DNA of 15,428 nucleotides from a virus. Its lineage: Duplodnaviria; Heunggongvirae; Uroviricota; Caudoviricetes. The DNA lies in the IMG/VR virus record IMGVR_UViG_2778261504_000013, positions 1 through 15,428 of that record; one strand, 5' to 3'. How positions within the stretch are numbered: position 1 is the first letter of the stretch; each line of letters begins with the position of its first letter. The notes under the pieces were generated by a model. It was not told where the DNA came from and did not search any database. It worked only from the letters and a program-made list of their open reading frames with translations. A program made the translations under genes and the position numbers. This document shows, piece after piece, positions 1 to 15,428 of the stretch.

Positions 1-896
<896 letters not shown>

Positions 897-1539
897 CGAA
901 AGTATCTTAGCGGGCATGAAAATGGCAAATAACGGTCAAACATCGTGGCGTTGACACCGAAGCTGTAACTGAACCATTCTCTGATTTTGTCCATACGGTA
1001 CATGCTCTACCCATTCATTGAGGGGATTTGCTCTATTTAATTAGGAATAAGGTCGATTACTGATAGAACAAATCCAGGATACTGTGTTTAGTAATCAGAT
1101 TTGTTCGTGACCGATATGCACGGGCAAAACGGCGTGAGGTTGTTAGCGCAACCTCCTGCCACCCGCTTTCACGAAGGTCATGTGTAGAAGGCCGCAGCGT
1201 AACTATCACTGATGAATTCAGGACAGCCAGTGGCTACGGCTCAGTTTGGGTTGTGCTGTTGCTGGGCGGCGATGACGCCTGTACGCATTTGGTGATCCGG
1301 TTCTGCTTCCGGTATTCGCTTAATTCAGCACAACGATAAGAGCACTCAGTGCATTTAAGCCAAGCCCCATAAGGGAGAATGCTCTTACCTGTTGTGCAGA
1401 CAAAAAACCGCACGGCGGCGGGTTTAAGCTGTGTGGCGAAGTTACCCATCTTTACCAAGTATTCGGTAATAAAATAACTTGTGGTGTTCTCATTTTTATG
1501 CCGATAAAATAAACGGTCCACTTTCAAATGGAGCGATTC

Positions 1540-2460
1540 ATGATTTTTCTCAGAACTGAAAACGGCATCGAGAAACTTGAAAACTGGGAGAAAATTATAT
1601 CCAGACCAAACTTTGTCACCACTATAGACAAAGGAGTTCAACAACTTGAGGAGATAATTGGTTACTACAAATTTAAAGAAGAAATCCACTGTGGTCTAAC
1701 TGGTTGCAACCAACCACATCAAATGGGTTATATTGTAAAAACATCTAGTGGCATTGAAACCAACATCGGAAATAAATGTGGTAAAAACGAATTTGGTGTG
1801 GAATTTGGTGAAAACGTTCTTAGTTTCAATAAATTTATGCAACTCGAAACCAATCGGGAAATTATTAGCACCGCAAAAAGTAAATGTGAAGAGTGGCAAA
1901 AAAATATTGAAACGATACGAAATATCAAACCCACAATAGATTATCTATCTTCTACCATCGAAAATAGTAAAAATTCCAATTACTCCGGAAGACTTGGTGC
2001 TACAGAAATTCGTTTTTTGACCAAGAGCCAGACAGGCCTTGTAACCCTTTCTGAAGTGGAAACTGATAAGAATACCAAAACAATTCTGTTCGCAATGAAT
2101 GAACACATGCGCGAGTCTGGAGAGGCAATAAGTGAATTCTACATAGGAAAAGTATCATTTAGTCATGTTCTTTTACCAGAAAACAATCTTCGTGATTTTT
2201 TTGTTGCGCTCAAAGAAGATCTAAAAAAAATTCAGTGTATTGATCTACAAACAGCCCCAAGCCCAGAAATTTCTAATGTTGCCAAAATTGCCAGTTCAAT
2301 CGAAGAACGAATCAAGCGATTAAAAAAACTGAAACATGAAGCCAGTAAATTCCTAACTAAAAAAAATCTGCGTCCCATCGCAAACAAAATAAAATACTCA
2401 TCGACAGCGGATGAACTTGAATTCCATAATTTCGAACGCTTTTTAAAAGGGCTGAAATGA
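1540..2460 (+). CDS. Hypothetical protein, AT-rich orphan gene (about 306-310 aa), function unknown
   Basis: Long ORF of clearly lower GC than its flanks; GGAG lies 6 nt upstream of ATG 1540 (the alternative ATG 1528 has no SD); followed by a hairpin terminator. Contains a Cys/His cluster (HCGLTGCNQPHQ ... NKCGKNEFG). I recognise no family. Confidence 0.65.
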   Translation: MIFLRTENGIEKLENWEKIISRPNFVTTIDKGVQQLEEIIGYYKFKEEIHCGLTGCNQPHQMGYIVKTSSGIETNIGNKCGKNEFGVEFGENVLSFNKFMQLETNREIISTAKSKCEEWQKNIETIRNIKPTIDYLSSTIENSKNSNYSGRLGATEIRFLTKSQTGLVTLSEVETDKNTKTILFAMNEHMRESGEAISEFYIGKVSFSHVLLPENNLRDFFVALKEDLKKIQCIDLQTAPSPEISNVAKIASSIEERIKRLKKLKHEASKFLTKKNLRPIANKIKYSSTADELEFHNFERFLKGLK

Positions 2461-2461
2461 T

Positions 2462-2484
2462 AAAAGCCCCGAAAGGGGCTTCTA
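2462..2484. terminator. Bidirectional intrinsic terminator between the convergent orphan gene and Q
   Basis: Stem 2464-2470 (AAGCCCC) pairs with 2475-2481 (GGGGCTT) around a GAAA tetraloop; U-rich flank is better on the minus-strand side (TTTTA), so it may act as the terminator downstream of Q. Confidence 0.6.
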
Positions 2485-2574
2485 TCAAAATCATTTACGC
2501 ATTATTCCGCATGCTTAAAAGCATACATGACAGATTCGGACAAAATCAAGTGCAATGTCGCAAAAACCCTAAGC

Positions 2575-3405
2575 TTAGTTCACATCATCACCAAAACTTG
2601 TCACATTCTGAAAAGCAATATCGGCCTTACGCTCTTCCTGGTGGCAAATGTCAACCAGAGAATCAAGAAACGGCTTCCAATTACGCGTCCATGTCCTGAC
2701 ATGTAGCTCGGGTATCCGCTTCAGTACAACTTTATATACTGTGGTAGACGGTACCGTGGAAAATCCATTTCCGCTGCAACGTTCGCAGATTTTAAACACT
2801 GGCACACCACGCTCGCTTGTGGCTTTGCGGTCCAGTACCTCTCCCTTTCCACCACAACGACACCTGGCACTTATCACTCCCTTCCCTTTACATACATCGC
2901 AAACGACTGGTACAACTTCCGTTACCTCTGTCCATTTCTCCCAGTCTGACGGTCGAACAGCACGGGAGCGACTGGCCCAATATGGTGCTTTACCCCATGG
3001 GTATGAAACCTTACGAATGACCTGCTTACGGGGTGTTAGTCCGGTACCACTGCAACTATGGCATGTTACGCTGGTGTCTGCCGATCGGGAATACTCAGCA
3101 AAAGCAAACTGCGCCAGTACCAGCATACACCAGCCAAATTCACCACCAGCTGCTTTACGCACATTCTTCGGTGCAATTTCCATCGCGTGACGCGCCAGCG
3201 CCTGGACTGCCATCTGCTCATCAGTCTTGCTGATACCGGCCTTCCCGAAGAAGGCCGCCAAGCCAAACCGCTCACGATTGCTGGTGGTACCAATAGCCGC
3301 CATAACATCGGTGCCTGTAAGACGTTCCGGAGAGGTTCCTTTCACATCGTCGCCGATATACATTCCCTGAGGACTGAAGTATTTTAGCGATGCCTCAAGC
3401 TTCAT
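2575..3405 (-). CDS. Late antiterminator Q-like protein with four DnaJ-type CxxCxGxG zinc-finger repeats
   Basis: CHSCSGTG, CDVCKGKG, CRCGGKG and CERCSGNG repeats; last gene of the cro-side operon (the lambda Q position); start overlaps the upstream stop (TAATG). The family assignment is from memory of Q proteins of the Qin/phage 82 type and is not search-verified. Confidence 0.7.
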   Translation of the reverse strand: MKLEASLKYFSPQGMYIGDDVKGTSPERLTGTDVMAAIGTTSNRERFGLAAFFGKAGISKTDEQMAVQALARHAMEIAPKNVRKAAGGEFGWCMLVLAQFAFAEYSRSADTSVTCHSCSGTGLTPRKQVIRKVSYPWGKAPYWASRSRAVRPSDWEKWTEVTEVVPVVCDVCKGKGVISARCRCGGKGEVLDRKATSERGVPVFKICERCSGNGFSTVPSTTVYKVVLKRIPELHVRTWTRNWKPFLDSLVDICHQEERKADIAFQNVTSFGDDVN

Positions 3406-4262
3406 TATTCACACTCCCCAACCAGATTAAGAATAACCGCCGCGCCATTGTCTTTCATATATTCGCCCTTTCCGCTTGCCAAAAACCAACGACACACCTC
3501 CACGGCTTCAGCCCGTGTCACCGGTTTGATGGTCATCAGCAATTTTTCAAGGTAGCGCTCGCGGTCATATACCGATTCGTGATGCTCAGAGTAACCATAC
3601 TCATCGCCCTGTTCTTTAGACGCAGTGTGGCGAACACTGTAGAGCCAGTCCCAGTAAACAAACTCACGAACTACGTCTGACAATGTATGAGGCTCTGGCA
3701 GTACATCACGATAGCCATCAACATATGCACGACGCTGATCATCAATTTCATTCATACGGATGCCATCAATTCTGCCCGCTGTCTTCTCGGCTGCAGTCCA
3801 GCCCCAGAGATGATCGTCGATAAATTTCTGGGAAGACTGGATCACTCGCTCGGCTTCCACATCTTCGAGTGCTGCTTCATAGCTACCAAACGTAGCCCTG
3901 ACTGATGTTGCTTTTTTGATATTCTCCCGGGCGATCCTGATTGCCTGTGCCGGGTTATCCATGCCGATGGTACCGAAAGCAATCTGGAAAGGATCACCAC
4001 CATTCGCCAGCAGATAACGCGAATAGCGTTCCTGGGCCTCTTTTGGGGAAATTTTAATTTTCACCAGCGCAGCCTCAGCAGCATCCAGATGTGCGGGTTC
4101 GTTCAGACGGATAACCTCCAGCACCCAAAGATAAGCATCAGTCTGCTTATGCCCGGTGATTCTCCGTTGCTCTGGCAGGGGCTTGATGTTTGCGAGGGCG
4201 GAGCTGTACGCTGCCGTCGGGATGGTGAATAGTGCTTTATGTTCGTTGTTATCAGTACGCAT
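3405..4262 (-). CDS. Hypothetical phage protein (285 aa), in the nin-like position between primase and Q
   Basis: Translationally coupled at both ends (TAATG overlaps at 4260-4264 and 3403-3407); no recognisable motif. Confidence 0.65.
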   Translation of the reverse strand: MRTDNNEHKALFTIPTAAYSSALANIKPLPEQRRITGHKQTDAYLWVLEVIRLNEPAHLDAAEAALVKIKISPKEAQERYSRYLLANGGDPFQIAFGTIGMDNPAQAIRIARENIKKATSVRATFGSYEAALEDVEAERVIQSSQKFIDDHLWGWTAAEKTAGRIDGIRMNEIDDQRRAYVDGYRDVLPEPHTLSDVVREFVYWDWLYSVRHTASKEQGDEYGYSEHHESVYDRERYLEKLLMTIKPVTRAEAVEVCRWFLASGKGEYMKDNGAAVILNLVGECE

Positions 4263-5230
4263 TACGCAACCGCCTTTTTCTTATGGAAAACCAGCTCTCG
4301 AACCTGATCACCGTTCATGAGCATATTGTTGAAATCATCGTGATCCGGCCAGTACACGCTCACGCGCTGCAGGTCATTCTTTGCCATCAGATTGGCATGA
4401 GCACATTCGCAAGCCGCAGCCAGCCCGGTGGCGCTGTTCTCGTCACGGTCGGCAAAAATAATCAGGTGCAGAACACCAGCTGGTACGCGGAACTTTTTCA
4501 TAAAGCCGCTGTTAATGGTTGCCCAAGTGTTCACGTTATAAATCTGGTGCGCTGACAGCGCTGTTTCGATGCCTTCGGCGATACCCAGAGTGCTAGCAAC
4601 AGGAAACATGCGGATAGCTACAGAACGAGCGTGATCCAAATAGTTATCTTCCTGCAGGGATTTGAGGCGCTTTGCACTGCTACCGATATCTGCTTTTTTA
4701 TCACCATCAAGCAGAGTCTGGTGCAGATAGCACAACTCCCCTTTATCGTCCGTAGCAAGTGAATAAAGAGACTGGAACACACTCCCGTTGTGTCTCTGCC
4801 TGGCATTGAACCGGATCGCCTCAGCAGGAAGACTGAATATTCCACGAGAATTAAGATACGCTGCGCCGGATGTACCACGCAGTGCCTCCAGTTTTGAAAA
4901 CTTGCTCAATACCCGTTTGCGTAAGCTGGTGGCGCTGCTGGTTACCGGGATTTTAACCCGTTGGTAATCATTACCGATCAGGCGGTCTATTTCGGTACAA
5001 ATCTCGTTAAATGGCTTCGCCTGTGTCAGGGTGACAAGTTTCATACCATCGCCACTACCACATACACAGATCCACGTTCCTGCACCGTCGCGGTCATCAA
5101 TTCGGAACTTGCCACGTGCACCGCATACCGGGCATTCACCCTTGAAGTGATTTTTTCCTGTTATCGGCGGCAAGCCGAAGTGCTCTAATATTTCAGGCCA
5201 GCGGCCTTTCGCTGCAGCTGCTGTTTTCAT
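4262..5230 (-). CDS. DNA primase with N-terminal zinc-binding domain and Toprim domain
   Basis: CPVCG ... WICVCGSG zinc-binding motif; Toprim signatures IAEGIETALS and IIFADRDEN (DxD); coupled to the helicase gene. Confidence 0.8.
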   Translation of the reverse strand: MKTAAAAKGRWPEILEHFGLPPITGKNHFKGECPVCGARGKFRIDDRDGAGTWICVCGSGDGMKLVTLTQAKPFNEICTEIDRLIGNDYQRVKIPVTSSATSLRKRVLSKFSKLEALRGTSGAAYLNSRGIFSLPAEAIRFNARQRHNGSVFQSLYSLATDDKGELCYLHQTLLDGDKKADIGSSAKRLKSLQEDNYLDHARSVAIRMFPVASTLGIAEGIETALSAHQIYNVNTWATINSGFMKKFRVPAGVLHLIIFADRDENSATGLAAACECAHANLMAKNDLQRVSVYWPDHDDFNNMLMNGDQVRELVFHKKKAVA

Positions 5231-5231
5231 C

Positions 5232-6890
5232 TTACTGACTCAAACTGTTTATATTTTTCTGGAGTTGTTGCTTTGCTTGCATGATGCGCCAAGCCTCAGT
5301 GCCTATTGGCATCTCGCTTCGCTCACCTCGTTCCTGAGACAGAGGAATCGTTGCCTGCAATTTTTCTATAGTTCTCTGCGTCCGCTGACGGCCTTTGGCA
5401 AACCGAATCAGCTTGTGTTTGATGTAGTTACTTACTTCTGGGCTTATTTCCATCGGGAAACTGCTCAACCCATCAGGCCATTCACCGAATTTCTCCCTGA
5501 AAGTGTGAGCACACCATCCATCACTGACTGGACGCCCCAGCGAAGCACGCTGGCGCTGATAAAATTTGATCTGACTCCACCAGGACTGTTTCTCTGTCTT
5601 CGTCGACTGATGCTGATTTTTACCCAGCTTATTAAGTTTGCGGCTAGTGTCAGTATCAACATCTTCACCTCGCAGCGGCTTGTGTCCACATTTAGGGCAA
5701 ACATAGACGCCAGCTGGCTTCATGTAGTGGCATTGAGGGCATTCATGTGGCAGTTTTTCGGCCCGTTCCTCAACTGCGCGGCGCGCGCTTTCCTCCATGC
5801 CGTCAGACTTACCGGGAAGATCGTCGTACTCGATTGAATCCGGATAACCCAAACGGTGCACGGTGCCGCTGTGATCGAAGATAAGGCAGGACTCTTTACC
5901 CGGTGCGGTGCGCAGCCCACGCCCGAGTGCCTGCAACCAGCGAATTTCGCTTTTTGTTGGCCTGGCGTAGATGATGCAACGAACGTCACTATCAAAGCCG
6001 GCCACCAGAACGCCCACACTAACGATGATTTTCGTTGCACCAGTTTCAAAGCGGTGAATGATGGTCTGGCGCTCATCTACCGGAGTGTCTGCGGTCATTA
6101 CCTCAGCGTTAACACCTGCGAGGTTAAACTGGATTGTCAGGTAATTGGCGTGGGCTACGTTGACGCAGAAAGCGATGGTAGGTAGATCCCGACCATTCTC
6201 CAGCCAGTTCTGTACGATGTCGCCCACCAGCGTAGAGCCGCACATGATTTCAGCCAGCTGTGTTTCGTTGTAATCGCGGCCGTACTCAAGCGAAGATGTG
6301 GTTTTAACACCTTTCAGATCCGGCTTAGTTGGCGCGTAAAATTCGTATTTACTCAGATCGCCACGCTGGATTAACTCGCCGATGGTGGTCGGCTTAATCA
6401 GTCGGTCATAGTATTTGCCCAGGAACGGAGAAAACGGAGTACCCGACAGGCCAATCACCTTTACGCCTTTGCCGCGCAGACGTTCGATATCCTTCAGGAT
6501 GCGTTTTTTACGCAGGTGCGCTTCGTCGATAATCAGCAGATCGATATTTTCAGGAAAAACACGACGAATAAGCGTGTCAGTGCTGGCAATCTGAATTTTC
6601 CGGTCCGGATCGTAGTTCGGGTGATCCGCCCAGATATAACCGATTTCATCTCCAGGTAAACCATACTGCACGAACCGATTAGCCGTCTGACCAATCAGGA
6701 TGGTGTACGGAACACAGAACAGAACACGCATACCACGGCTGACAAAACCAGCAACGATGAAGGCTGCCAGACCCGTTTTACCGCTACCTGTTGGCGAGTA
6801 AACCATGAAGGTGTCGTTTGCCTTCCAGTCACGGCGCAACATGTTTAGCGCTCGCTCCTGTGCAAAATTCGGCGTGATTGTCAGCTGCAT
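5232..6890 (-). CDS. Superfamily 2 (DEAH-type) DNA helicase, replication module
   Basis: Walker A SPTGSGKTG, DEAH box IIDEAH, motif III LSGTPF, motif VI QALGRGLR; C-terminal zinc ribbon CPQCH ... CPKCGH. Confidence 0.85.
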   Translation of the reverse strand: MQLTITPNFAQERALNMLRRDWKANDTFMVYSPTGSGKTGLAAFIVAGFVSRGMRVLFCVPYTILIGQTANRFVQYGLPGDEIGYIWADHPNYDPDRKIQIASTDTLIRRVFPENIDLLIIDEAHLRKKRILKDIERLRGKGVKVIGLSGTPFSPFLGKYYDRLIKPTTIGELIQRGDLSKYEFYAPTKPDLKGVKTTSSLEYGRDYNETQLAEIMCGSTLVGDIVQNWLENGRDLPTIAFCVNVAHANYLTIQFNLAGVNAEVMTADTPVDERQTIIHRFETGATKIIVSVGVLVAGFDSDVRCIIYARPTKSEIRWLQALGRGLRTAPGKESCLIFDHSGTVHRLGYPDSIEYDDLPGKSDGMEESARRAVEERAEKLPHECPQCHYMKPAGVYVCPKCGHKPLRGEDVDTDTSRKLNKLGKNQHQSTKTEKQSWWSQIKFYQRQRASLGRPVSDGWCAHTFREKFGEWPDGLSSFPMEISPEVSNYIKHKLIRFAKGRQRTQRTIEKLQATIPLSQERGERSEMPIGTEAWRIMQAKQQLQKNINSLSQ

Positions 6891-6940
6891 TGTGCTGTCC
6901 CCGCAGTGATGAGATAATAATTTTGTGATGTGGTTTTCAT
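6881..6940 (-). CDS. Possible 19-aa upstream ORF (MKTTSQNYYLITAGTAQCS) coupled to the helicase start
   Basis: Strong SD GAGGAGGAA 5 nt upstream of ATG 6940; its stop overlaps helicase codons 2-3, while the helicase's own SD is weak. Too short to call on coding signal alone. Confidence 0.3.
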   Translation of the reverse strand: MKTTSQNYYLITAGTAQCS

Positions 6941-7001
6941 GGATTCCTCCTCACATGGCTGGTGGTCTCCCCAAAGGCTGCCAGCCCCTTTCCGAATCAA
7001 C

Positions 7002-7370
7002 TCACTTAAATTTCGTCGCACGAATAACGTCAATTCCGTTCTCGCTATATCGAAGAGGGTGCTTACCATCCCTGAGCAGGACAAAACCTGACATCCCCTC
7101 AGGTAGCTGAGCCAGCTTCATCAACGAACGGTTGCGGGGAGACTTCTTATCGACCTCAATGGCACACTGCTGGCCGTCTGATGATGTAACCAAGCAATCA
7201 ATAAACCCTTTACGACCACCGCTAATGCTGATGCTGAAATTGCGTTGCAGGTGGTATCCCTGAGACTTGATTTTTTTCTGCATCACATAATCGAAAACGA
7301 CTTTGTCATCGGAGCGGATGAATTGCTCTTCCAGGAGAGCGATTAAATTTTGCTTCAGGTCTTCACTCAT
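7002..7370 (-). CDS. Small protein with possible PD-(D/E)xK / VRR-NUC-like nuclease core, upstream of the helicase
   Basis: Segment GRKGFIDCLVTSSDGQQCAIEVDKKS ... Q ... GFVLL resembles the VRR-NUC core; the track's start at 7406 is TTG, so ATG 7370 is preferred. Family assignment is low confidence. Confidence 0.5.
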   Translation of the reverse strand: MSEDLKQNLIALLEEQFIRSDDKVVFDYVMQKKIKSQGYHLQRNFSISISGGRKGFIDCLVTSSDGQQCAIEVDKKSPRNRSLMKLAQLPEGMSGFVLLRDGKHPLRYSENGIDVIRATKFK

Positions 7371-7619
7371 ACTTTTTATCCATCTTGTACTAGCTTTCTG
7401 GTACAATCGTTTTTTCAGGGGTATCCCCCTTTAGATCGAGATCTACCTAACCTATGTACCCGTCTGTTGGAAAAGCCTGTTCCAGTGCTTCGCACTAACA
7501 CACGGGCACTCCTCCCCCTCCCCTCCTCTCACTGAATTTTGCATGTACTCCTTAGCTAGTACACAAAATGCAATGAGATTTGGGATTCAGCCACCGGACA
7601 CCTTTAAGCCCGGTACCAA

Positions 7620-7913
7620 TCAGGAGCGCGATTGCGTTCCTGCCAGGGGCGGCTGAGTTGTATACCCCTGTAAAGCTCTGCCCTGATTTCTCACGAACAG
7701 GCGGAGCCTTGTGTTTGCTTCATGCCTTGCTCTGTTCTCCTTACGGAATGAAACAGGCTCAGCGTCAAAAGTGATTTCGTATACCTCCGCATATTTCAGG
7801 GCGACCTTCCGTCTCAGTGACGGAGGCAGCCCCTGTAACTGCTGCTGAATCCACTCTTTGTCTGCCTGGCAGTACCTAGATGGCATCTCTGTCTGAACGT
7901 AATTCTGGGACAT
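7620..7913 (-). CDS. Hypothetical early protein (97 aa) immediately downstream of cro
   Basis: ORF with GGAGGTGA upstream of ATG 7913; overlaps the cro 3' end by 38 nt; in the cII-like position but with no resemblance to lambda CII. Confidence 0.5.
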   Translation of the reverse strand: MSQNYVQTEMPSRYCQADKEWIQQQLQGLPPSLRRKVALKYAEVYEITFDAEPVSFRKENRARHEANTRLRLFVRNQGRALQGYTTQPPLAGTQSRS

Positions 7914-8163
7914 ACAAGCCCTTCACCTCCCCCGTGCGCGCTAAGCTTGGATGTGGAAAAAGCTCTGGTAGGTCTGGACGAAATTCATACGCTTGGATCT
8001 TTCCGTCTACAGCTGCAACCAATAACGGCACAAATTCTGGTGAAATCTTGTTCTTGCAGTTCAACCAATCGCAGACTGTTGACTGGGCCTTTCCGCATCG
8101 CTTGGCTAAGGCTTGCTGACTTCCAAGAATCTCAATAGCTTTCTCTATGGCTTTATGTTTCAT
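7876..8163 (-). CDS. cro: Cro-like HTH repressor (Cro/YdaS type)
   Basis: 95 aa, HTH SQQALAKRCGKAQSTVCDWLN; divergent from the cI-like gene; AGGAGA SD upstream of ATG 8163 (the track's upstream extension is less likely). Confidence 0.7.
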   Translation of the reverse strand: MKHKAIEKAIEILGSQQALAKRCGKAQSTVCDWLNCKNKISPEFVPLLVAAVDGKIQAYEFRPDLPELFPHPSLARTGEVKGLYVPELRSDRDAI

Positions 8164-8185
8164 AATCGCATCTCCTATTGAACGC

Positions 8186-8214
8186 ATAATAACAACAGGA
8201 AAAGCGATATTCAA
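8186..8214 (-). promoter_or_regulatory. Candidate PR-like sigma70 promoter for cro (TTGAAT-17-TATTAT on the minus strand)
   Basis: Read on the minus strand: -35 TTGAAT (8209-8214), 17-nt spacer, -10 TATTAT (8186-8191), about 25 nt upstream of the cro start. Confidence 0.5.
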
Positions 8215-8230
8215 CGTTAAACCTAGAATA

Positions 8231-8250
8231 TTTATCGGAAAGCCGATAAA
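8231..8250. promoter_or_regulatory. Operator: perfect 20-bp palindrome TTTATCGGAAAGCCGATAAA in the cro-cI intergenic region
   Basis: 8+4+8 inverted repeat seen directly; its 14-bp core ATCGGAAAGCCGAT matches two sites at the promoter downstream of cI (11/14 to the 9028-9041 site). Confidence 0.55.
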
Positions 8251-8282
8251 CTAGCCAAGATAGAGAGGGGAGGAAAATCGCA

Positions 8283-8975
8283 ATGACATTTTCAGAACGA
8301 CTTGATTTAGCTATGCGCAACGCAAAATTTACGCAAGGTAGGCTGGCCAAAGAAGTGGGTATGGCTCAGTCCAGTGTTAATCAACTACTTAACAAAGCCA
8401 ACGGTTCCAGAAAAACAGTCGAAATAGCAAAAGTTTTGGGCGTTAACCCGGAATGGCTCGCATCGGGTGTTGGCCCAATGGAAATCGTGACCTCTGCAGA
8501 CTCACACCAAATACGTAACATTTCTGAAGATTGGGTTACTGATTCGTATGTCGTGGATGTTTTAGACATCAGATATAGTTGCGGACCTGGTAGTTATAAC
8601 TCTGATTTTCCTGACATTGTCAGATCTATAGCTATAGAACCAGGATACGCATCAAGAGTTTTTGGCGGCAGACCAGCATCAGCAATCAAAGCAATAAACG
8701 CCCACGGCGACAGTATGAAAGGCACAATAGACCCTGAAGACTTGGTATTTGTAGATGTATCAGTTCGCACATTTAATGGTGATGGTATATACGCCTTTAC
8801 ATACTCTGGAACATCGCACATCAAAAGACTTCAAAAAATCAAAGATACTCTAACGGTGATATCTGACAACCCAGCTTACAAGGATTGGGCTATCGAACCG
8901 GAAGACTTCGAACAACTTCACATTGACGGAAAAGTAATTGTCAGTTGGCCTATGACACTACACCGTTTTGCATAA
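8283..8975 (+). CDS. cI: CI-type prophage repressor: N-terminal HTH plus C-terminal S24 (LexA-like) autopeptidase
   Basis: HTH QGRLAKEVGMAQSSVNQL; S24 catalytic Ser in AHGDSMKG and Lys in HIKRL; possible Cys-Gly cleavage site (YSCGPG); strong SD GGGGAGGA; divergent from cro. Confidence 0.85.
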   Translation: MTFSERLDLAMRNAKFTQGRLAKEVGMAQSSVNQLLNKANGSRKTVEIAKVLGVNPEWLASGVGPMEIVTSADSHQIRNISEDWVTDSYVVDVLDIRYSCGPGSYNSDFPDIVRSIAIEPGYASRVFGGRPASAIKAINAHGDSMKGTIDPEDLVFVDVSVRTFNGDGIYAFTYSGTSHIKRLQKIKDTLTVISDNPAYKDWAIEPEDFEQLHIDGKVIVSWPMTLHRFA

Positions 8976-8993
8976 GCAAAAATCATTTAACCC

Positions 8994-9018
8994 GCCCACT
9001 CTTAAGTGGGCTTTTTTT
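8994..9018 (+). terminator. Intrinsic terminator after cI
   Basis: GCCCACT-CTTA-AGTGGGC perfect stem-loop (8994-9011) followed by T7 (9012-9018). Confidence 0.7.
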
Positions 9019-9027
9019 GGAAGAAAA

Positions 9028-9069
9028 ATCGATAAACCGATTGACAGGTGAAATCGGTAAACCTATTAT
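9028..9069 (+). promoter_or_regulatory. PL-like early promoter (TTGACA-17-TATTAT) with two overlapping operator copies
   Basis: -35 TTGACA 9041-9046, 17-nt spacer, -10 TATTAT 9064-9069; operator-like 14-mers ATCGATAAACCGAT (9028-9041, abutting the -35) and ATCGGTAAACCTAT (9053-9066, over the spacer and -10). Confidence 0.6.
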
Positions 9070-9109
9070 CTTGACATAGGTATCGAACTCACCAAAGCAA
9101 TTATAGAGG

Positions 9110-9529
9110 ATGAGAAAAATGTCATCGTATATGGGGTTACCAACAAATCAGCACGATGCTCTTGAGAATATTCAGCTCTTAGTAGGGGCTGGTGCACTAC
9201 TGTATAGCAGCAATAACCCTGAGTTAATTGAACTTGCCAGCTCCATCCTGGCTGTAACTCAAAAATATAGCCTCACCGCGTCACGTTTATGCAAACAAAA
9301 TTTAGCTATTAATTCCCAGAATCGGATTCGCACCCAACGCGAAGCCTGCGGCTTAACAACCGCCGAACTCGCCAGGCTGCTCGATCTCGATGAAGAAATC
9401 ATCATCCAGTGGGAGAGCGGAGAGTATGAACCAACTATCAGTATGCTTATCCCTCTGGCTAATGTTTTTGGCTGTGACCCAATGTGGTTATTGACTGGTG
9501 CTTATAAACAAAATCAGGAGGAAGCATAA
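9110..9529 (+). CDS. XRE-family HTH protein (C-terminal HTH), first gene of the PL-like operon
   Basis: C-terminal HTH TQREACGLTTAELARLLDLDEEIIIQWESGEYEPT; the start may be ATG 9119, which has better SD spacing; N-terminal domain unknown. Confidence 0.65.
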   Translation: MRKMSSYMGLPTNQHDALENIQLLVGAGALLYSSNNPELIELASSILAVTQKYSLTASRLCKQNLAINSQNRIRTQREACGLTTAELARLLDLDEEIIIQWESGEYEPTISMLIPLANVFGCDPMWLLTGAYKQNQEEA

Positions 9530-9530
9530 G

Positions 9531-9722
9531 ATGAAAATGTTCAAAGGCCTTACCAACGAACCGGAGACAGTTTTTCATCACATTGCCGTACTGCTTGAAG
9601 CGGGGTTAATCATTTCGGCTTCCGGTGATGAAGAATGTGATGAACTTTCGGATGATATCTTTCTACTGGCACAACAATACGCCAGAAGCGCATGCGATGC
9701 ATTTAAGGAGCAAAGAACATGA
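9531..9722 (+). CDS. Small acidic hypothetical protein (63 aa)
   Basis: AGGAGG SD; acidic stretch SGDEECDELSDD; stop overlaps the next start (ATGA). Confidence 0.5.
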   Translation: MKMFKGLTNEPETVFHHIAVLLEAGLIISASGDEECDELSDDIFLLAQQYARSACDAFKEQRT

Positions 9723-9910
9723 AAACTCCATTAAATATTCTTGAGGAAGTGGCAGCACAAATAAAAGAGAATACATCAATGCTTGAATTTATATTTAAGA
9801 ATTCGCCCGACCAAGGAGAGACAGACGATTATTTATGCTGTCTCATTCGCTCCATGAATAAGACCTGTGAAATGGCTTACGAGTATATAGAAACACTACG
9901 CAACGAATAA
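9719..9910 (+). CDS. Small acidic hypothetical protein (63 aa)
   Basis: AAGGAG SD 8 nt upstream; translationally coupled to the preceding ORF. Confidence 0.5.
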   Translation: MKTPLNILEEVAAQIKENTSMLEFIFKNSPDQGETDDYLCCLIRSMNKTCEMAYEYIETLRNE

Positions 9911-10094
9911 AGAACTCTCAATAAAAAATCACACATAAAAACATGACGGCCTCTGGTCGGGGGTTTTCACAACCAGAAAATAATGGTGATGCATGAAAAA
10001 CAGAAGTGCTTATAAAACCGCATTATTAATGGCTAATGCAGGATACTGGTCAGTTGCAATACTGTTTCTCAGGAAAGCATACGGGAAATAACAA

Positions 10095-10454
10095 ATGACA
10101 CATGAACCCATTAATACATATCGTCGCCGTATAGCTGTTGCGGCACTCCATCGAATAAAACGTAAAACAGGTGTTAATCTGCTTATTGTTGACCTTCCTG
10201 ATGGGAACATTACGACCATAGAAATAACTGAACAGTTTATAAACCAGTTGCTGTTACGCTTCGAAGGTATTACCCGTGGCGAATTGGGCCGGGTGGAGGG
10301 TGAAACCGAAATCCACACTGCATACCAGAATGCTATCGGGATTAATCAACATACTGAATACCTGACTGAAACCGGAAAGTTAATTATAGACAACCTTTTT
10401 CAAGAGGTTATTGATTACGCGAAAGAAAAATATATCAGCGGAGGAATTAACTGA
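10095..10454 (+). CDS. Hypothetical protein (119 aa)
   Basis: ORF in the operon after a 184-bp gap; weak SD; stop overlaps the next start (TGATG). Confidence 0.55.
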   Translation: MTHEPINTYRRRIAVAALHRIKRKTGVNLLIVDLPDGNITTIEITEQFINQLLLRFEGITRGELGRVEGETEIHTAYQNAIGINQHTEYLTETGKLIIDNLFQEVIDYAKEKYISGGIN

Positions 10455-10669
10455 TGGCTAATTTATCCCCTGTATCTGTTGTGCACGAAAAAGTGCAGAT
10501 CGTTATGACAATTGAAAATGGCCAAGTCACAGGTGTCTGCAAAGTCCGCGATGGCGAGCTGATTGCCAGCATGGATACATTCATACGGCTGGCAGAAAGA
10601 GCGGGGTATCAGATAACAGCACCTGCTCAGGAGGAAACCGGTGGCATTAACAGCAACACGCATTCCTGA
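10454..10669 (+). CDS. Hypothetical small protein (71 aa), possible partner of the downstream toxin-like ORF
   Basis: Coupled to the upstream gene and overlaps the downstream ORF by 29 nt, the usual antitoxin-toxin geometry; no recognisable motif. Confidence 0.45.
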   Translation: MANLSPVSVVHEKVQIVMTIENGQVTGVCKVRDGELIASMDTFIRLAERAGYQITAPAQEETGGINSNTHS

Positions 10670-10862
10670 GTGGGTGCACCTGCAGGCGGTCCGTGTTCTC
10701 CGCCAGTTCAGAGCCAGACGAATTCATCCCTGTCGTATGCACGGCTCCGGAAACCTGAGTCTGAGGGTTAATCGCCGCTGGCGGCTGCTGTCCCGAGACG
10801 GCGGCCAGAACTGGGAAGTAATGAGCCATGAACGATACAGCAAAGTTAAGGACCGGAAATGA
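10641..10862 (+). CDS. Candidate RelE/HigB-superfamily toxin-like protein (73 aa, GTG start)
   Basis: AGGAGG 7 nt upstream of GTG 10641; C-terminal segment LSLRVNRRWRLLSRDGGQNWEVMSHERY resembles the RelE/HigB core (LRV ... EVMTHKEY). Shorter than typical family members, so it may be degenerate. Confidence 0.4.
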   Translation: MALTATRIPEWVHLQAVRVLRQFRARRIHPCRMHGSGNLSLRVNRRWRLLSRDGGQNWEVMSHERYSKVKDRK

Positions 10863-10892
10863 ACAATAAATCTTCAAACCAAAAGGAGAGTA

Positions 10893-11474
10893 TTGATGAT
10901 TAATTCAACCATTACCCCTGAACCTACATTAACAGGCATCCGTTTTGGTAATCGAATTATTGGCTATTCAACTGCGGTTCGCCAGATCGACAACGGTAAC
11001 TATGACAAACGAATTCCGGACGGGCTCGATCTGATAGCTTGCATTATGGAAGGGATTGAAAGCGGCTGGTTTATGCCGTGTATTGAAAAACAAATCATCC
11101 TATGGCGCTGGCTTGTTGTCGCCGTGTTCATTGCTGAGGAGCAGGAGAAGAACGGGACTGTCGATGTTCAGAATGACAAGGGCGGCGTAGATACAGCCGT
11201 TGTATACACGGGAAAACCCGGTTCAATCAGCATTTATCCGTGGTCTGAGCGCTTCGCGCTCGCTAACCATATCGAGGCGGGCGCAATTGAAAAATACGGG
11301 CCTGACGTTGGTCAGCAGATGGCGCTGCGTATGTATCAGGACATGGTTGTAACTGACGAGAAATGCGGATTCAGGCTGTCAGCGATGGGCCGGGAGGGAC
11401 TCAACATACTACATGACAGCTTCATTGAACTGATTCAGAAAGACGGTATGCCAGACATGCCGGTTATGCACTGA
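10893..11474 (+). CDS. Hypothetical protein (193 aa)
   Basis: AAGGAG SD 7 nt upstream; no recognisable domain. Confidence 0.6.
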   Translation: MMINSTITPEPTLTGIRFGNRIIGYSTAVRQIDNGNYDKRIPDGLDLIACIMEGIESGWFMPCIEKQIILWRWLVVAVFIAEEQEKNGTVDVQNDKGGVDTAVVYTGKPGSISIYPWSERFALANHIEAGAIEKYGPDVGQQMALRMYQDMVVTDEKCGFRLSAMGREGLNILHDSFIELIQKDGMPDMPVMH

Positions 11475-11485
11475 GGTGGACGAAA

Positions 11486-12235
11486 ATGAACATAGTAACG
11501 ATCAATAACAAACAGCTTCCGGCAGTCGAATATCGCGGTCAGCGTGTTGTGACGCTGGCAATGATTGATGAAGTCCACCAGCGCCCGGAAGGTACCGCCC
11601 GTGCTGCGTTTAACCGCAACCGTTCTCACTTTATCAAAGGGGTGGATTTTCTTGAAATGACTGCGGACGTAATACGTACGGAGTCACTTTCTGATGCCTT
11701 TGCCGCGCGAACTGCCAAAGGGATCATTCTTTTCGAGTCTGGTTACCTGATGTTGACGAAGCCTTTTAACGATGCTCTTGCATGGCAGGTTCAGCGCGAA
11801 CTGGTTAACAGCTATTTCCGAACTCACGCGCCGCTGACGGAAATGGAGATGATCGCTGCAATGGCCGCCGATGCCGTTCGCCAGCAGAAGCGCCTGAGTC
11901 ATGTTGAAGAGAAGATCGAAACGGTCACCAAAGCTGTGGAGAACATCAAACGCGGCACAATGCGCACCGGATATGTCGGTTACCGCCAGGTGGTAGCCAA
12001 AAGCGGAATGAGTGACGCCAAGTGTCGGAATCTGGTCAACGCCTACCACATCCCTACCGACACGCACGAATTTATGACTCCGGACGGTCTGTTGTCTCGC
12101 AGGGCTGTCGTCGAGCTTGAGACATTTATGGCGGCGTTCCACCAAATGATGTCAGAGGCTGAACCACGCGGCACACGCTGGTATCACCCGAAGATGGGGC
12201 TTTTTCAGGTAATCGGATGGGAGGATAAAGCATGA
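11486..12235 (+). CDS. ORF6N-domain protein (antirepressor / Rha-like regulator family)
   Basis: N-terminal LAMIDEVHQRPEGTARAAFNRNRSHFIKGVDFLEMT matches the ORF6N pattern (..kRN..rF..g.dF..lt); GAGGTGGA SD; stop overlaps the next start (ATGA). Confidence 0.65.
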   Translation: MNIVTINNKQLPAVEYRGQRVVTLAMIDEVHQRPEGTARAAFNRNRSHFIKGVDFLEMTADVIRTESLSDAFAARTAKGIILFESGYLMLTKPFNDALAWQVQRELVNSYFRTHAPLTEMEMIAAMAADAVRQQKRLSHVEEKIETVTKAVENIKRGTMRTGYVGYRQVVAKSGMSDAKCRNLVNAYHIPTDTHEFMTPDGLLSRRAVVELETFMAAFHQMMSEAEPRGTRWYHPKMGLFQVIGWEDKA

Positions 12236-12801
12236 TCATCCAGTCAAAACTTATTCGCGCCGCTCTGGTGTGCGCTGCTAAAAACGACGTTCGTTATTAC
12301 CTGAACGGTCTTCACATCACGCCAAAACATATTGAGGCAACCAATGGTTTCGTAGCACTGCGCATGACTCACGGCATCCGGACGAAGAAAAACATCATTG
12401 TCCAGTTCGAAGGTGGCGTCCCGGCCAAAGCCGAAACGACAGAGCTGATTTTTAGTAAAGAGCCGATCGCTGTTCATCGCGACCAGTTTCAGCGCCGGCT
12501 GTCCATTACCGGCATTAAATTGGTGGACGGTTGTTTTCCGGATTTGGAACGCATCATTCCGAAAAAATTTGACCTCTGTACACACCCGGTGATCCAGGCG
12601 GGTTACCTGAGTTATCCAGAGAAGATGTTTGGTCGTGAGCGTAAATTTATTCCCGTCCAGTTACGTTCCTCCGGTGACGGGCAAGCGGTCAGAATTCAGT
12701 TTGATTCCATCATCAACTCAATGTATGGCAATCCTGAATTTGTTGTGATGCCTTGTCGTGATCATGGCGATTTCAATGTGGCTCAGGAGCATCCGGAATG
12801 A
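12232..12801 (+). CDS. Truncated DNA polymerase III beta-clamp (DnaN) homologue, domain II plus partial domain III
   Basis: Three collinear matches to E. coli DnaN as I recall it: NDVRYYLNGL vs QDVRYYLNGM; IKLVDGCFPDLERIIPKKFD vs SKLVDGRFPDYRRVLPKNPD; EFVVMPCRD vs AYVVMPMRL. Only 189 aa, lacking domain I. Confidence 0.7.
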   Translation: MIIQSKLIRAALVCAAKNDVRYYLNGLHITPKHIEATNGFVALRMTHGIRTKKNIIVQFEGGVPAKAETTELIFSKEPIAVHRDQFQRRLSITGIKLVDGCFPDLERIIPKKFDLCTHPVIQAGYLSYPEKMFGRERKFIPVQLRSSGDGQAVRIQFDSIINSMYGNPEFVVMPCRDHGDFNVAQEHPE

Positions 12802-12836
12802 AAATCGAATACCAGGACGCCGCAGGAGGTGAATCA

Positions 12837-12920
12837 ATGAGCTGGCCTGATGCAATCGTAACTCTGGGGGTGGTATTCGCAGTAGCGTTTGTTGTGTTCT
12901 CGATTTGTCGATGGGGATAA
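12837..12920 (+). CDS. Small single-pass membrane peptide (27 aa, MSWPDAIVTLGVVFAVAFVVFSICRWG)
   Basis: Strong SD AGGAGGTGA 6 nt upstream of ATG; hydrophobic core typical of a transmembrane helix; below the size cutoff of the ORF track. Confidence 0.4.
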   Translation: MSWPDAIVTLGVVFAVAFVVFSICRWG

Positions 12921-12924
12921 CCAC

Positions 12925-13092
12925 ATGTTCGCTTTGATTCAACGCGGTCAGATATACACGGACAGAGCTGGATACCCCGTGGTGATTACTCGCATCACTG
13001 AGCACTCAGTGTTCTTTCGACGGATGGACGGACGATCCGGGCGGGTACGCATTGGTGAGTTAAACTGCCTGTTCGAACATATTGACCACTAG
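12925..13092 (+). CDS. Small hypothetical protein (55 aa)
   Basis: ATG 12925 with a GGGGA upstream; internal start within the track ORF 12889-13092. Confidence 0.4.
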   Translation: MFALIQRGQIYTDRAGYPVVITRITEHSVFFRRMDGRSGRVRIGELNCLFEHIDH

Positions 13093-13170
13093 GAGTACCG
13101 CAAAATTCTCGCGGACACTGAGCAGGAAAAGCACCTGAAAAAATTACGAGCCATAAAAAGGAAGTAAAGA

Positions 13171-13317
13171 ATGAATAAAGCATTTGAACGATGGGTCCAC
13201 CAGCGTTACGGCAATCGCTATGACCTGACGCGAGATGTTGACGGCTTCTACTGTCGTGAAGTTGTGAAGCGAATGTTTGAAGTGTGGTGCCACTGCCGTG
13301 GGCTGAGTGTTGTGTGA
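13171..13317 (+). CDS. Small Cys-containing hypothetical protein (48 aa)
   Basis: AAGGAAG SD; ORF MNKAFERWVHQRYGNRYDLTRDVDGFYCREVVKRMFEVWCHCRGLSVV; sits just upstream of xis. Confidence 0.4.
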   Translation: MNKAFERWVHQRYGNRYDLTRDVDGFYCREVVKRMFEVWCHCRGLSVV

Positions 13318-13325
13318 GGTGATGT

Positions 13326-13535
13326 ATGGGGCTGGATTGCGTGCCTATATCAACCTACTGCCGCGACGCGGGAGAAACGGTTGATGCCGTTAACAAACGG
13401 ATACAAAGAGGAATATGGAAAGAAGGGGTTCATGTATTAAAAGTCGATGGAGTTAAAGAACGCTGGGTCGACTTAATAGAGGTTTCAAAATGGGCAAGAA
13501 AGAACAAGGATTATTATCTCTGCCAAGAGGAGTAA
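13326..13535 (+). CDS. xis: Excisionase-like protein
   Basis: 69-aa ORF immediately upstream of and overlapping int by 46 nt, as in lambda xis-int; GAGGTGA SD; small basic winged-helix-like sequence. Confidence 0.6.
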   Translation: MGLDCVPISTYCRDAGETVDAVNKRIQRGIWKEGVHVLKVDGVKERWVDLIEVSKWARKNKDYYLCQEE

Positions 13536-14668
13536 CTATTCGTAAGCATAAAACTGCTTCAACACTAGTTATCACTTTCACATATAAAGGGGTTCTTTGC
13601 AGGGAGCCCCTGTCTCGGCTTGAGGCAAATACACGTGGTATTAAATATGCTGAGCGCCTGCTAGGGGAGATACAAAATCAGATCGCCAGTGGAACGTTTG
13701 AATATGCGAAATATTTCCCCAGTTCCAAAAAACTGGAGTTATTCGGTATAGTAAAGAAAACCAAAAATATTAAGTCCTATCTTGATGAATACCTGAAAAT
13801 TTGCATGAACCGCAATCTGTCGCCGTCAACCATTGGCGGTTACGAAAAATGTATATCAGCACTATCAGAGCTACATAAACTACATGTAACAGAATTGACG
13901 CCTGCGGTACTAAAAAATTGGATAGCCAGCCGAAAAACTAAGCTGAAAACAATCAGGAATAACCTGTCATTTCTGCGCAGCGCCATTGATGAGGCTGTAA
14001 CTGATGGCCTGTTGACTATTAACCCGGTAACTCTTGTCAGCGCCAGCCGGTATCACGTGGTCGACAGTAAACCGAACGCCGACGATTACGAAGTTGATCC
14101 GTTTGCGCCTGCGGAAACCAGTGCCATATATCAGCACTGCAAGTATCAGGAATGGCAGAATCTGTTCCGCTTCGCCTTCAATACAGGGCTACGCAGCTCT
14201 GAGCTATGCGCATTACGTTGGACCGATATCGACTTTATAGGTAATACAGCGCACATACAGGCGGCCAGTGTCGTAGGGGTACTTAAAGGCACCAAGACAA
14301 AAGCCGGTACCCGTAAGGTGGAGCTGAACAGTGAGGCGCTGGCGGCCCTGCAGGCGCAGAAGCAATACACCTTTATGAAAAGTGAGTTCATATTCAGCGA
14401 TCCGAAAACGGGAGATCCCTGGACGAACGCCGACGCTATCCGTAAAAAAGCATGGGTGCCGACCCTAAAAAAAGCTGGTGTGCGCTACCGTAACCCGTAC
14501 CAGACGCGCCACACATTCGCCACCAGACACATTAGCCAGGGTGTAAACCTTTTCTGGCTTGCCGGGCAGATGGGGCATAAGGGGCCGGAAATGCTGTTCC
14601 GCAATTACGGTAAATACCTGGCTGAATACGACGGGAAAACCGCAATGGAAGCTGGAATGAAGAAGTGA
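13490..14668 (+). CDS. int: Tyrosine recombinase (phage integrase)
   Basis: Catalytic signature TGLRSSEL (Arg), TRHTFATRH (His-x-x-Arg), HKGPEMLFRNYGKY (His and Tyr nucleophile); N-terminal arm-binding-like region; last gene of the operon. Confidence 0.9.
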   Translation: MGKKEQGLLSLPRGVTIRKHKTASTLVITFTYKGVLCREPLSRLEANTRGIKYAERLLGEIQNQIASGTFEYAKYFPSSKKLELFGIVKKTKNIKSYLDEYLKICMNRNLSPSTIGGYEKCISALSELHKLHVTELTPAVLKNWIASRKTKLKTIRNNLSFLRSAIDEAVTDGLLTINPVTLVSASRYHVVDSKPNADDYEVDPFAPAETSAIYQHCKYQEWQNLFRFAFNTGLRSSELCALRWTDIDFIGNTAHIQAASVVGVLKGTKTKAGTRKVELNSEALAALQAQKQYTFMKSEFIFSDPKTGDPWTNADAIRKKAWVPTLKKAGVRYRNPYQTRHTFATRHISQGVNLFWLAGQMGHKGPEMLFRNYGKYLAEYDGKTAMEAGMKK

Positions 14669-14674
14669 TTTGAA

Positions 14675-14706
14675 GAAAAAACCCGGCAAATGCCGGGTCT
14701 TTTTGA
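14675..14706. terminator. Bidirectional intrinsic terminator between int and the convergent 196-aa gene
   Basis: ACCCGGCA / TGCCGGGT inverted repeat (14681-14698) flanked by an A-run upstream and T5 downstream. Confidence 0.7.
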
Positions 14707-14709
14707 TGG

Positions 14710-15300
14710 TTATTCTGTCGCGCCACCTATCGAAACATAATCATGAAATTGATCGTCAATGAGTCGGTCCTTACAGATAACATGTACAATGTGACGACAA
14801 CAGTTTTCATCATCATACGCACGACCCCAGCGAACAATCTCATCTACAGACAGATCATTCGCACTCCATGGCAAAGTACCTGAAACACCACGCGCACCTG
14901 GACCAAGTATGTCCATAAATTTCTTCGTGCGTGAATTGTAGATCCGTACCTCGGCAATTCGAATGATGCTACTAGCCCAAAGAGCACCACCGGCAATACT
15001 TTGAATGTTATCGCAGATGAGAAACTCATGCTTTCGCGCAAGCATTTTATAGATCTCACGCGCCAAACCTGCTGATTGGAAATCCTGTGCGATAACAGCG
15101 CTTTTCACTTGCTTTCCGGTCATCATCTGACCGTTCTCTTCGATAAAATTAAAGTCGTTGAACTGTATACGACCTATTCTTATCGTTTTGTTATCGTCTA
15201 CCATATCAAGACCCAAGAGGGTATTGACCAGATCCTGCATTGGAACCTTCGAATCAAGAAGGTCACTGCCATAGTCTAAAAAAAGTCGTCGGTGGAACAT
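14710..15300 (-). CDS. Hypothetical protein (196 aa), AT-rich, convergent with int; function unknown
   Basis: Complete ORF (in-frame stop 11 codons upstream of the ATG), no strong SD; no motif I can assign; lies at the att-proximal edge of the prophage or in flanking DNA. Confidence 0.6.
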   Translation of the reverse strand: MFHRRLFLDYGSDLLDSKVPMQDLVNTLLGLDMVDDNKTIRIGRIQFNDFNFIEENGQMMTGKQVKSAVIAQDFQSAGLAREIYKMLARKHEFLICDNIQSIAGGALWASSIIRIAEVRIYNSRTKKFMDILGPGARGVSGTLPWSANDLSVDEIVRWGRAYDDENCCRHIVHVICKDRLIDDQFHDYVSIGGATE

Positions 15301-15428
15301 CCCAGTTGATACACATCCAAGTAGTACTGAAACTCACCAGAACTGACAATGGGTGATGCTGCCAACTTACTGATTTAGTGTATGATGGTGTTTTTGAGGT
15401 GCTCCAGTGGCTTCTGTTTCTATCAGCT

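Follow-up and report, generated by a model that had tools for sequence, protein, structure and literature searches.

Which proteins read the three related 14-mers that flank the cI-like repressor gene of a lambdoid prophage of Escherichia coli, and how are these sites arranged over the promoters that they would control? The stretch of DNA in which they lie (IMG/VR record IMGVR_UViG_2778261504_000013, positions 1 to 15,428; hereafter the window, to which all coordinates refer) is part of such a prophage. An original prediction, made from the letters of the window, had proposed that a single operator family occurs both between cro and cI and at a promoter behind cI that resembles the leftward promoter (P_L) of lambda, and that this family specifies immunity. 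Our analysis supports that proposal: the sites are linked to one cI allele, they show a footprint of conserved half-sites, their layout recurs in six relatives, and their half-sites covary with helix 3 of the helix-turn-helix (HTH) domains of cI and Cro. We judge it about 80% probable that the three 14-mers serve as operators in an immunity switch of the lambda/434 type, read by the cI-like and the Cro-like proteins.

The 14-mers and their linkage to one cI allele

The cro-like and cI-like genes are divergent, with a gap of 119 nt between them. The strong operator core (8234-8247, ATCGGAAAGCCGAT) lies in this gap, as had been predicted, and it is the sole exact match to ATCGG-N4-CCGAT in the window. 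The other two 14-mers, the promoter-distal P_L operator (9028-9041, ATCGATAAACCGAT) and the promoter-proximal P_L operator (9053-9066, ATCGGTAAACCTAT), each carry one mismatch to that pattern. The sequences and coordinates of all three had been given correctly in the original prediction, which had also described positions 8231-8250 as a perfect 20-bp palindrome. This last description must be given up: the 20-mer reads TTTATCGG AAAG CCGATAAA, that is, an 8-4-8 interrupted palindrome with 8-bp arms and a non-symmetric 4-bp centre, in which 16 of the 20 positions are symmetric and the four central ones are not.

When at most one mismatch to ATCGG-N4-CCGAT is allowed, the 15.4 kb of the window contain exactly three matches, compared to 0.39 expected under a Markov model; the probability of three or more is ~0.01, a value subject to bias, since the sites themselves supplied the pattern. 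All three matches lie within ~250 nt of intergenic DNA flanking cI, and the same three places are the only such matches in 42 kb of the strain Ch1 prophage and its host flank. When two mismatches are allowed, we find 11 matches in the window versus 5.8 expected, and the pattern is no longer distinctive. The supposition that the motif is not equally frequent throughout the genome therefore holds at one mismatch or fewer, where only the flanks of cI contain matches, and does not extend to two mismatches, where there is no enrichment. Since this is so, it is position and comparison, and not the number of matches, that carry the statistical case. Indeed, a pattern defined after its sites had been seen, and unenriched at two mismatches, is what we might also expect if the 14-mers were alike by chance, or because promoter-like DNA is rich in A/T, and were not specifically bound at all. 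The lack of further matches in 42 kb already speaks against such an origin, and the comparison with other genomes does so more directly.

In all 21 IMG/VR contigs whose cI is at least 89% identical to that of the window, the site in the right operator region (OR) and at least one P_L site are found at the same offsets, and none of these contigs contains another such site in its ~5.7 kb. At 63 other loci, most of them with a cI of 43-49% identity, the sites are absent from those positions. The module as a whole (OR, cI and the left operator region, OL) is present in 25 of 5426 complete E. coli genomes, or ~0.5%, Shiga toxin-producing (STEC) and enterotoxigenic (ETEC) strains included, and always in one copy. 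Among 50,697 phage records, the best cI identity is 52%.

The variants of the module, of which we sampled 11 for OR and 17 for OL, also reveal a footprint. The half-sites vary in no more than one of their ten columns: one of ten for the strong OR site across the 11 variants, and none for the distal P_L site, which is invariant across the 17. Of the six nucleotides that separate the P_L -35 hexamer from the proximal site, by contrast, five vary. Those substitutions that do occur within the sites are confined to the central four base pairs or change C to A at position 3 of a half-site, and we accordingly take AT[C/A]G[G/a]-N4-[t/C]C[G/T]AT as a working consensus. The 14-bp dyads have a 5-4-5 layout, with conserved outer bases and a variable centre, and the four central base pairs are probably not contacted. 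Invariant half-sites beside hypervariable bases, strict linkage to the cI allele and, as shown below, the recurrence of the architecture with other half-sites in six relatives all argue against mere chance or composition, which we consider an extremely unlikely explanation of the three sites.

Half-sites and recognition helices across immunity types

The relatives whose cI is 43-49% identical share its C-terminal domain and have divergent N-terminal domains. A scan of related prophages, which had been suggested along with the original prediction, bears it out: as the sites of the window track its cI/cro allele, so each of six relatives repeats the layout with half-sites of its own. That is, each has a 14-bp 5-4-5 motif in its cro-cI gap, composed of ATCGC/GCGAT in L026, ATAGC/GCTAT in L001 and L077, ATAAC/GTTAT in L002, ATACG/CGTAT in L003 and ACAAC/GTTGT in L032. 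In five of the six, two further copies of the motif, 24-25 bp apart, lie downstream of cI; for L003 there is no downstream match within the DNA examined. Every relative examined has two to three sites in OR, and in all of them the cI-proximal site is a perfect palindrome whose last base begins a -10-like hexamer.

The proteins that would read these motifs change along with them. Residues 4-62 of the window cI find chains of the 434 repressor as their top matches in the PDB (phmmer, E=3.6e-4 to 8.7e-4), and the protein as a whole matches Pfam Peptidase_S24 (E=7.5e-17), HTH families and PHROG 4 (E=1e-53). The Cro-like protein matches Pfam YdaS_toxin (E=1e-14) and the transcriptional repressors of PHROG 35 (E=1e-22); its start at 8163 agrees with the starts of its relatives (MKxxAIEKAI) and with an AGGAG ribosome-binding site. 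Helix 3 of Cro resembles helix 3 of cI, and this parallel is seen in seven immunity types, in which both helices covary with the half-site. For the half-site ATCGG of the window, helix 3 is AQSSVNQ in cI and AQSTVCD in Cro. The corresponding pairs are AQSSVNK and AQSTICD for ATCGC (L026), AQPSVWK and KQPSVWA for ATAGC (L001), SQPAIQK and SQPAVHK for ATAAC (L002), AQPTIWR and AQPTVWR for ATACG (L003), and SQAAIQK and SQAAVQK for ACAAC (L032). Taken together, this is strong indirect evidence for both cI and Cro as readers of the 14-mers, and for the 14-mers as determinants of immunity specificity.

Between the window and L026, a change of Gln34 to Lys in cI, at position 6 of the helix, accompanies a change from G to C at position 5 of the half-site, and helix 3 of Cro is barely changed. 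More generally, we have here seven heteroimmune variants on one protein scaffold, in which differences in one or two operator bases are matched by differences in the recognition helices, and whose operator layout is shared, to the base in L002, the one case checked. They form a compact natural data set for the recognition rules of HTH proteins and for the design of orthogonal repressor/operator pairs.

A third HTH protein is encoded close to the sites, and it might be supposed that the 14-mers are not cI/Cro operators but the autoregulatory sites of this 136-aa protein of Xre type, the first to be transcribed from the P_L-like promoter. Its HTH_3 domain is bona fide, its own promoter carries two of the three sites, and its gene is inside the co-inherited mosaic module, the joints of which are near 7935 and 9500. 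Yet phi467 and phiP27, which carry a near-identical HTH in the same gene position, have the unrelated OR/OL motifs AAATCAAGTAAAA and CCAAAGTATCA, which go with their own cI and cro. Moreover, the motif tracks helix 3 of cI and Cro across the seven immunity types. On these grounds, and above all because of the motifs in phi467 and phiP27, we rejected the 136-aa protein as the reader of the sites; that it nevertheless plays this part is highly improbable.

Probable promoters and operators of the switch

The P_L-like promoter (9041-9069, plus strand) was predicted as TTGACA-17-TATTAT, and this sequence is as stated. It consists of TTGACA (9041-9046), a 17-nt spacer and TATTAT (9064-9069), with 11 of 12 consensus positions, and would drive the operon that extends from the 136-aa HTH regulator to the integrase. 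Both hexamers are conserved in relatives, and positions 9047-9052 are hypervariable. The two 14-mers, 25 bp apart, had been placed over the -35 and over the spacer and -10, respectively. For the proximal site this is accurate: it covers the spacer and the first three nucleotides of the -10, with its centre near -16.5. The distal site, by contrast, abuts the -35 rather than overlapping it, sharing only T9041, and has its centre near -41.5. The P_L-like promoter that the scan tool calls in L002 is identical to that of the window in this arrangement, to the base: its -35 shares one base with the distal site, and the proximal site overlaps its -10 by three bases.

Upstream of the pair lies an intrinsic terminator (8994-9018, plus strand), whose 7-pair stem with five G-C pairs is kept in relatives and is followed by a T-run. 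No third OL site was found; its position at -62 is occupied by this T-run. Two further candidates near P_L were rejected. A second TTGACA, at 9071-9076, is not conserved, reading ATGACA or ATGGCA in relatives, and lacks a -10, so that it was discarded as a promoter. At 9077-9087 the half-site-like ATAGG/ATCGA forms a direct repeat, is likewise not conserved, and was discarded as a third OL site.

In the cro-cI gap, the promoter scan finds a promoter for cro that resembles the rightward promoter (P_R) of lambda (8186-8214, minus strand). Its -35, TTGAAT (8214-8209), is followed by a 17-nt spacer and a TG-extended -10 of the form TGnTATTAT (TATTAT at 8191-8186); it has 9 of 12 consensus positions in addition to the TG extension, and transcription of cro would start near 8179. 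In L026, the closest relative in the DNA-binding domain, the cro promoter TTGACA-17-CATAAT is found in the same place, with one operator filling its spacer and another abutting its -35, a placement that matches the window.

A promoter for cI, analogous to the promoter for repressor maintenance (P_RM) of lambda, may be located at 8224-8252 on the plus strand, with the -35 TAGAAT (8224-8229), a 17-nt spacer that contains the strong operator, and the -10 TAAACT (8247-8252). We place it there because the -10 is kept as TA[A/G]ACT in all 11 OR variants and because of the analogy with L002, in which the scan tool calls a promoter of the same geometry, TTTACT-17-TATATT. There, too, the cI-proximal operator fills the spacer and the -10 begins on the operator's last base, so that the placement agrees with that in the window to the base. 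By this analogy, the cI promoter is probably TAGAAT-17-TAAACT. We also considered TAGAAT (8224-8229) as the -10 of cI, and rejected this since its last T is C or G in six of the 11 unique OR variants of close relatives; the hexamer is better read as a -35, if a weak one. A leaderless cI transcript driven from GAAAAT (8273-8278) was likewise rejected, there being no usable -35, and the Shine-Dalgarno sequence before the cI start being conserved in relatives.

The start of cI itself differs among relatives. In those like L002 it comes 11 nt after the operator and has no Shine-Dalgarno sequence, which suggests a leaderless cI mRNA, as in lambda; the group of the window has a 24-nt insertion before cI that carries a strong Shine-Dalgarno sequence.

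How, then, is cro repressed? The centre of the strong site at 8234-8247 is ~61 bp upstream of the cro start, and the site does not touch the cro promoter. Its place in the spacer of the probable cI promoter makes it the analogue of OR3; and since it lies at about -61 of the cro promoter, it cannot shut off cro on its own. Weaker sites were scored against the degenerate pattern ATMGR-N4-YCKAT. The candidate in the position of OR1 (8195-8208, ACAGGAAAAGCGAT) fills the P_R spacer beside the -35 and would be a weak operator. It has two mismatches in the window, one in L017 and strain Ch1 (ATAGGAAAAGCGAT), and none in L022, L023 and ETEC1732 (ATAGGTAAATCGAT), all five of which have an identical cI N-terminal domain. 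ETEC1732 belongs to the band of 90-95% identity, which comprises 11 of the 25 genomes, and is the single genome inspected from that band. The position of 8195-8208 also matches that of site S1 in L026.

The candidate in the position of OR2 (8213-8226, AACGTTAAACCTAG) is doubtful. It overlaps the -35 of P_R as well as the -35 of the candidate P_RM, and with three mismatches does not reach significance by itself; in its centre and right part it is similar to the proximal P_L operator, its block is conserved in relatives, and L026 and L002 have a perfect site at this position. A further sub-consensus match (ATCGCATCTCCTAT) covers the cro ribosome-binding site at 8165-8178, or ~+2 to +15 of P_R. 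With one mismatch to the degenerate pattern and no variation among relatives, it may be an operator or simply a ribosome-binding site. It forms a series with the matches at 8135-8148 and 8195-8208, at intervals of exactly 30 bp, which extends from the cro promoter to the first codons of the gene (cluster P ~0.003). One other candidate, the inverted repeat ATATTC-N13-GAATAT (8207-8231), was rejected as a Cro site, as its right arm is not conserved.

Of the three operators that overlap P_R and P_RM in lambda, the OR of the window may have counterparts in one consensus site over the candidate P_RM, a P_R-spacer site with two mismatches that is consensus-grade in a sister lineage, and a doubtful middle site. 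It was thought at first that the region contained only one strong site and that the switch might therefore differ from that of lambda. This was half right: there is only one consensus site, but the cro promoter carries sub-consensus sites, of which 8195-8208 reaches the consensus in the sister lineage. As judged from these comparisons, OR probably keeps a multi-site layout in which the OR1 and OR2 positions are weak in this lineage.

Alternatively, 8234-8247 may be the only site in OR that is bound, with the sub-consensus matches being noise, in which case repression of cro would require something else, for example a loop between OR and the P_L pair ~800 bp away, or would not be tight, as in a leaky or defective prophage. 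The single consensus site fits this alternative, as do the two to three mismatches of the other candidates, the middle one of which is worse still in six contigs. The distance from OR3 to OR1 is compressed, at 39 bp versus 46-50 bp in relatives, and some Cro proteins bind little more than one site: PY54 Cro binds essentially one (PMC4488713), and N15 Cro binds only OR3 (PMC6649833). Three findings stand against this. At the same position in the P_R spacer, the sister lineage, whose cI DNA-binding domain is identical, has a full consensus site; every heteroimmune relative examined has two to three OR sites; and sub-consensus matches are clustered over the cro promoter to a degree that is unlikely by chance (P ~0.003). 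We regard an OR with only one bound site as quite improbable.

A related possibility is that OR reverses the order of affinities known from lambda. The sole consensus operator would then lie over the cI promoter, with only degenerate sites at the cro promoter, and cro would be repressed by long-range cooperation with the P_L pair ~800 bp away or by unusually strong pairwise cooperativity. If this were true, cI would be held very low under tight auto-repression, making for a hair-trigger prophage. We consider such an inversion unlikely, if slightly less so than a single bound site.

Several observations weigh against the reading that we prefer, in which cI and Cro read the 14-mers and a multi-site OR. 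The candidate cI promoter is weak, falling below the scan threshold in the window, and its -35 varies at the last two positions among relatives. The weak sites at the cro promoter are not individually significant; 8213-8226 gains another mismatch in six contigs (the L005 group), and the conservation of 8165-8178 is uninformative because this match coincides with the cro ribosome-binding site. The OR sites are spaced by 18, 21 or 39 bp, as opposed to the 24-25 bp usual in relatives, and cooperative pairing in OR is therefore uncertain. Since cI and Cro are always co-inherited, their co-occurrence with the sites cannot separate their roles. Lastly, neither the window 14-mers nor the operators of the relatives turned up in the literature that could be searched.

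With these points in mind, a switch of the lambda/434 type could work as follows. Dimers of the cI-like repressor would read 5-bp half-sites (AT[C/A]GG) on either side of four A/T-rich base pairs that are probably not contacted, and the Cro-like protein, with its similar recognition helix, would read the same sites. In a lysogen, cI dimers would occupy the sites of the cro promoter and the P_L pair, in the latter case probably cooperatively, given the lambda-like spacing of 25 bp. The two dimers at P_L would shut the leftward operon, which begins with the HTH regulator and extends to the integrase. The weaker sites, that is, 8195-8208, perhaps 8213-8226 and perhaps 8165-8178, would account for the repression of cro, probably aided by cooperative binding. 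The consensus site at 8234-8247 would most likely serve two ends, namely the shut-off of cI by Cro after induction and the negative autoregulation of cI.

Prophage setting and comparison with known switches

The Cro-like gene (8163 to 7876, minus strand; 95 aa) encodes an HTH protein of YdaS/Cro type and is the first gene of the early-right operon. Further genes of the minus strand encode a DEAD-box helicase, a primase and a Q antiterminator. On the plus strand, the cI-like repressor (8283-8975, 230 aa), with its N-terminal HTH domain of 434 type and its self-cleaving S24 C-terminal domain, is followed by the Xre-type HTH gene (9119-9529, 136 aa; PHROG 4836 'CII-like regulator', E=1e-51; Pfam HTH_3), by small open reading frames (ORFs), and by a tyrosine integrase (13490-14668). 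Strain Ch1 carries a 98.6% identical copy with unchanged gene order, in which xis and int are adjacent to mlrA/yehV, and the genes for lysis, head and tail follow beyond Q. The map is lambda-like, because cI and the promoter behind it point to int, and cro points to replication, Q and the late genes.

The repressor has the S24 dyad, Ser144 (in GDSM) and Lys181 (in HIKRLQ), and its Cys100-Gly101 aligns with Ala-Gly of relatives. Together these residues predict self-cleavage stimulated by RecA; given the S24 self-cleavage domain, induction by the SOS response is to be expected. The presumed cleavage site is Cys-Gly (YSCGPGS; codons 100-101, window 8580-8585), as in UmuD, where the relatives of 43-49% identity have Ala-Gly (FSAGPGS).

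The immunity module extends from ~7935 to ~9500, and its flanks differ among the 25 E. coli genomes and 21 viral contigs that share it. Both mosaic joints fall inside genes, at ~7935 after codon ~75 of cro and at ~9500 after codon ~127 of the 136-aa HTH gene; beyond codon ~75, several alternative C-terminal tails of cro are found among relatives. The 136-aa protein is itself fusion-like. Its N-terminal ~55 residues match PHROG 4587, as does the 63-aa ORF that follows (9531-9722), and its C-terminal Xre HTH is near-identical in phi467 ('DicA') and phiP27 L10, despite their different immunity regions.

Two other features of the window lie outside the module. At the left end, beyond the Q antiterminator, a gene for an IstB-like ATPase of the IS21 family (96-896, E=2.5e-90) suggests an insertion sequence within the prophage. 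In the early-right operon, a gap of ~215 nt without a long ORF (7406-7620, minus strand) separates a 97-aa ORF from a 134-aa ORF, and the neighbouring gene encodes a NUMOD4-domain protein according to the annotation of strain Ch1. The transcript strand of this gap folds unusually well (-54 kcal/mol, z=-3.9), and contains a long hairpin at ~7537-7575 and the G-rich run GGAGGGGAGGGGGAGGAG. It could be a terminator, an antitermination element or a small RNA; it has no Rfam match, and Rfam and tRNA scans of the whole window gave none either.

The kind of switch described here is textbook, and the understanding of such switches is unchanged by our findings. The operator sequence and the whole family of the cI scaffold appear to be uncharacterised, and what we add is a probable operator sequence, AT[C/A]GG-N4-CC[G/T]AT, and promoter layout for an immunity type that is absent from deposited phages.

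The operators of the 434 repressor are also 14 bp long, and the repressor and Cro of 434 share similar recognition helices, as do cI and Cro of the window. In both systems, outer half-sites that are contacted, or in the window probably so, flank a 4-bp A/T-rich centre. Of these two 434 proteins (PDB 2OR1, 1RPE, 1PER, 3CRO), the repressor is the best solved match to the cI N-terminal domain, and two Gln residues are conserved, one opening helix 3 and the other at position 6 of that helix. The motif ACAAC-N4-GTTGT of L032 is close to the 434 motif, ACAA-N6-TTGT. In the window, the half-site is ATCGG and not ACAA, the similarity of the N-terminal domains is remote, Cro belongs to a YdaS/lambda-Cro-like Pfam family rather than to the all-helical type of 434 Cro, and the spacing of OR and the number of good sites differ. 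In the window operators the centre varies among relatives and is probably not contacted, as is expected where DNA is read indirectly in the manner of 434 (PMC3317979).

With lambda the window shares the divergence of cro and cI, an operator family common to OR and to the promoter that runs in the direction of cI to int, and a repressor with an S24 self-cleavage domain. The predicted centres of the OR sites are at -22.5, -40.5 and -61.5 with respect to the cro promoter, and at -57.5, -39.5 and -18.5 with respect to the candidate cI promoter. They resemble the operator centres of lambda, which are at about -17/-41/-64 and -66/-42/-19. In contrast to lambda, the sites of the window are 14 bp rather than 17 bp long, OL has two sites and not three, and the best site is at the OR3 position, whereas the best cI site of lambda is OR1. 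Furthermore, the P_L of the window directly follows the terminator behind cI, with no rex-like genes between, and its first gene encodes an Xre-type HTH protein and not N.

Some of these departures are already known variants. The lambdoid E. coli switch of 933W has no OL3 and an order of operator affinities unlike that of lambda (PMC3317979), so that a two-site OL and altered affinity orders have both been seen before. The repressor and operator sequence of 933W differ from those of the window, and its non-cooperativity is experimental, whereas the switch of the window is known from sequence. In N15 and phiKO2, OR3 is a near-symmetric consensus site, from which OR1 and OR2 deviate, and it is the preferred site of Cro and the only one that Cro binds well (PMC6649833). 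Unlike the prophage of the window, N15, phiKO2 and PY54 are linear-plasmid prophages, whose Cro folds are unrelated, whose sites are 16 bp long and whose repressors differ. Their immB regions nevertheless offer a parallel to what we find in the window, namely a single consensus site at the OR3 position (PMC6649833, PMC4488713).

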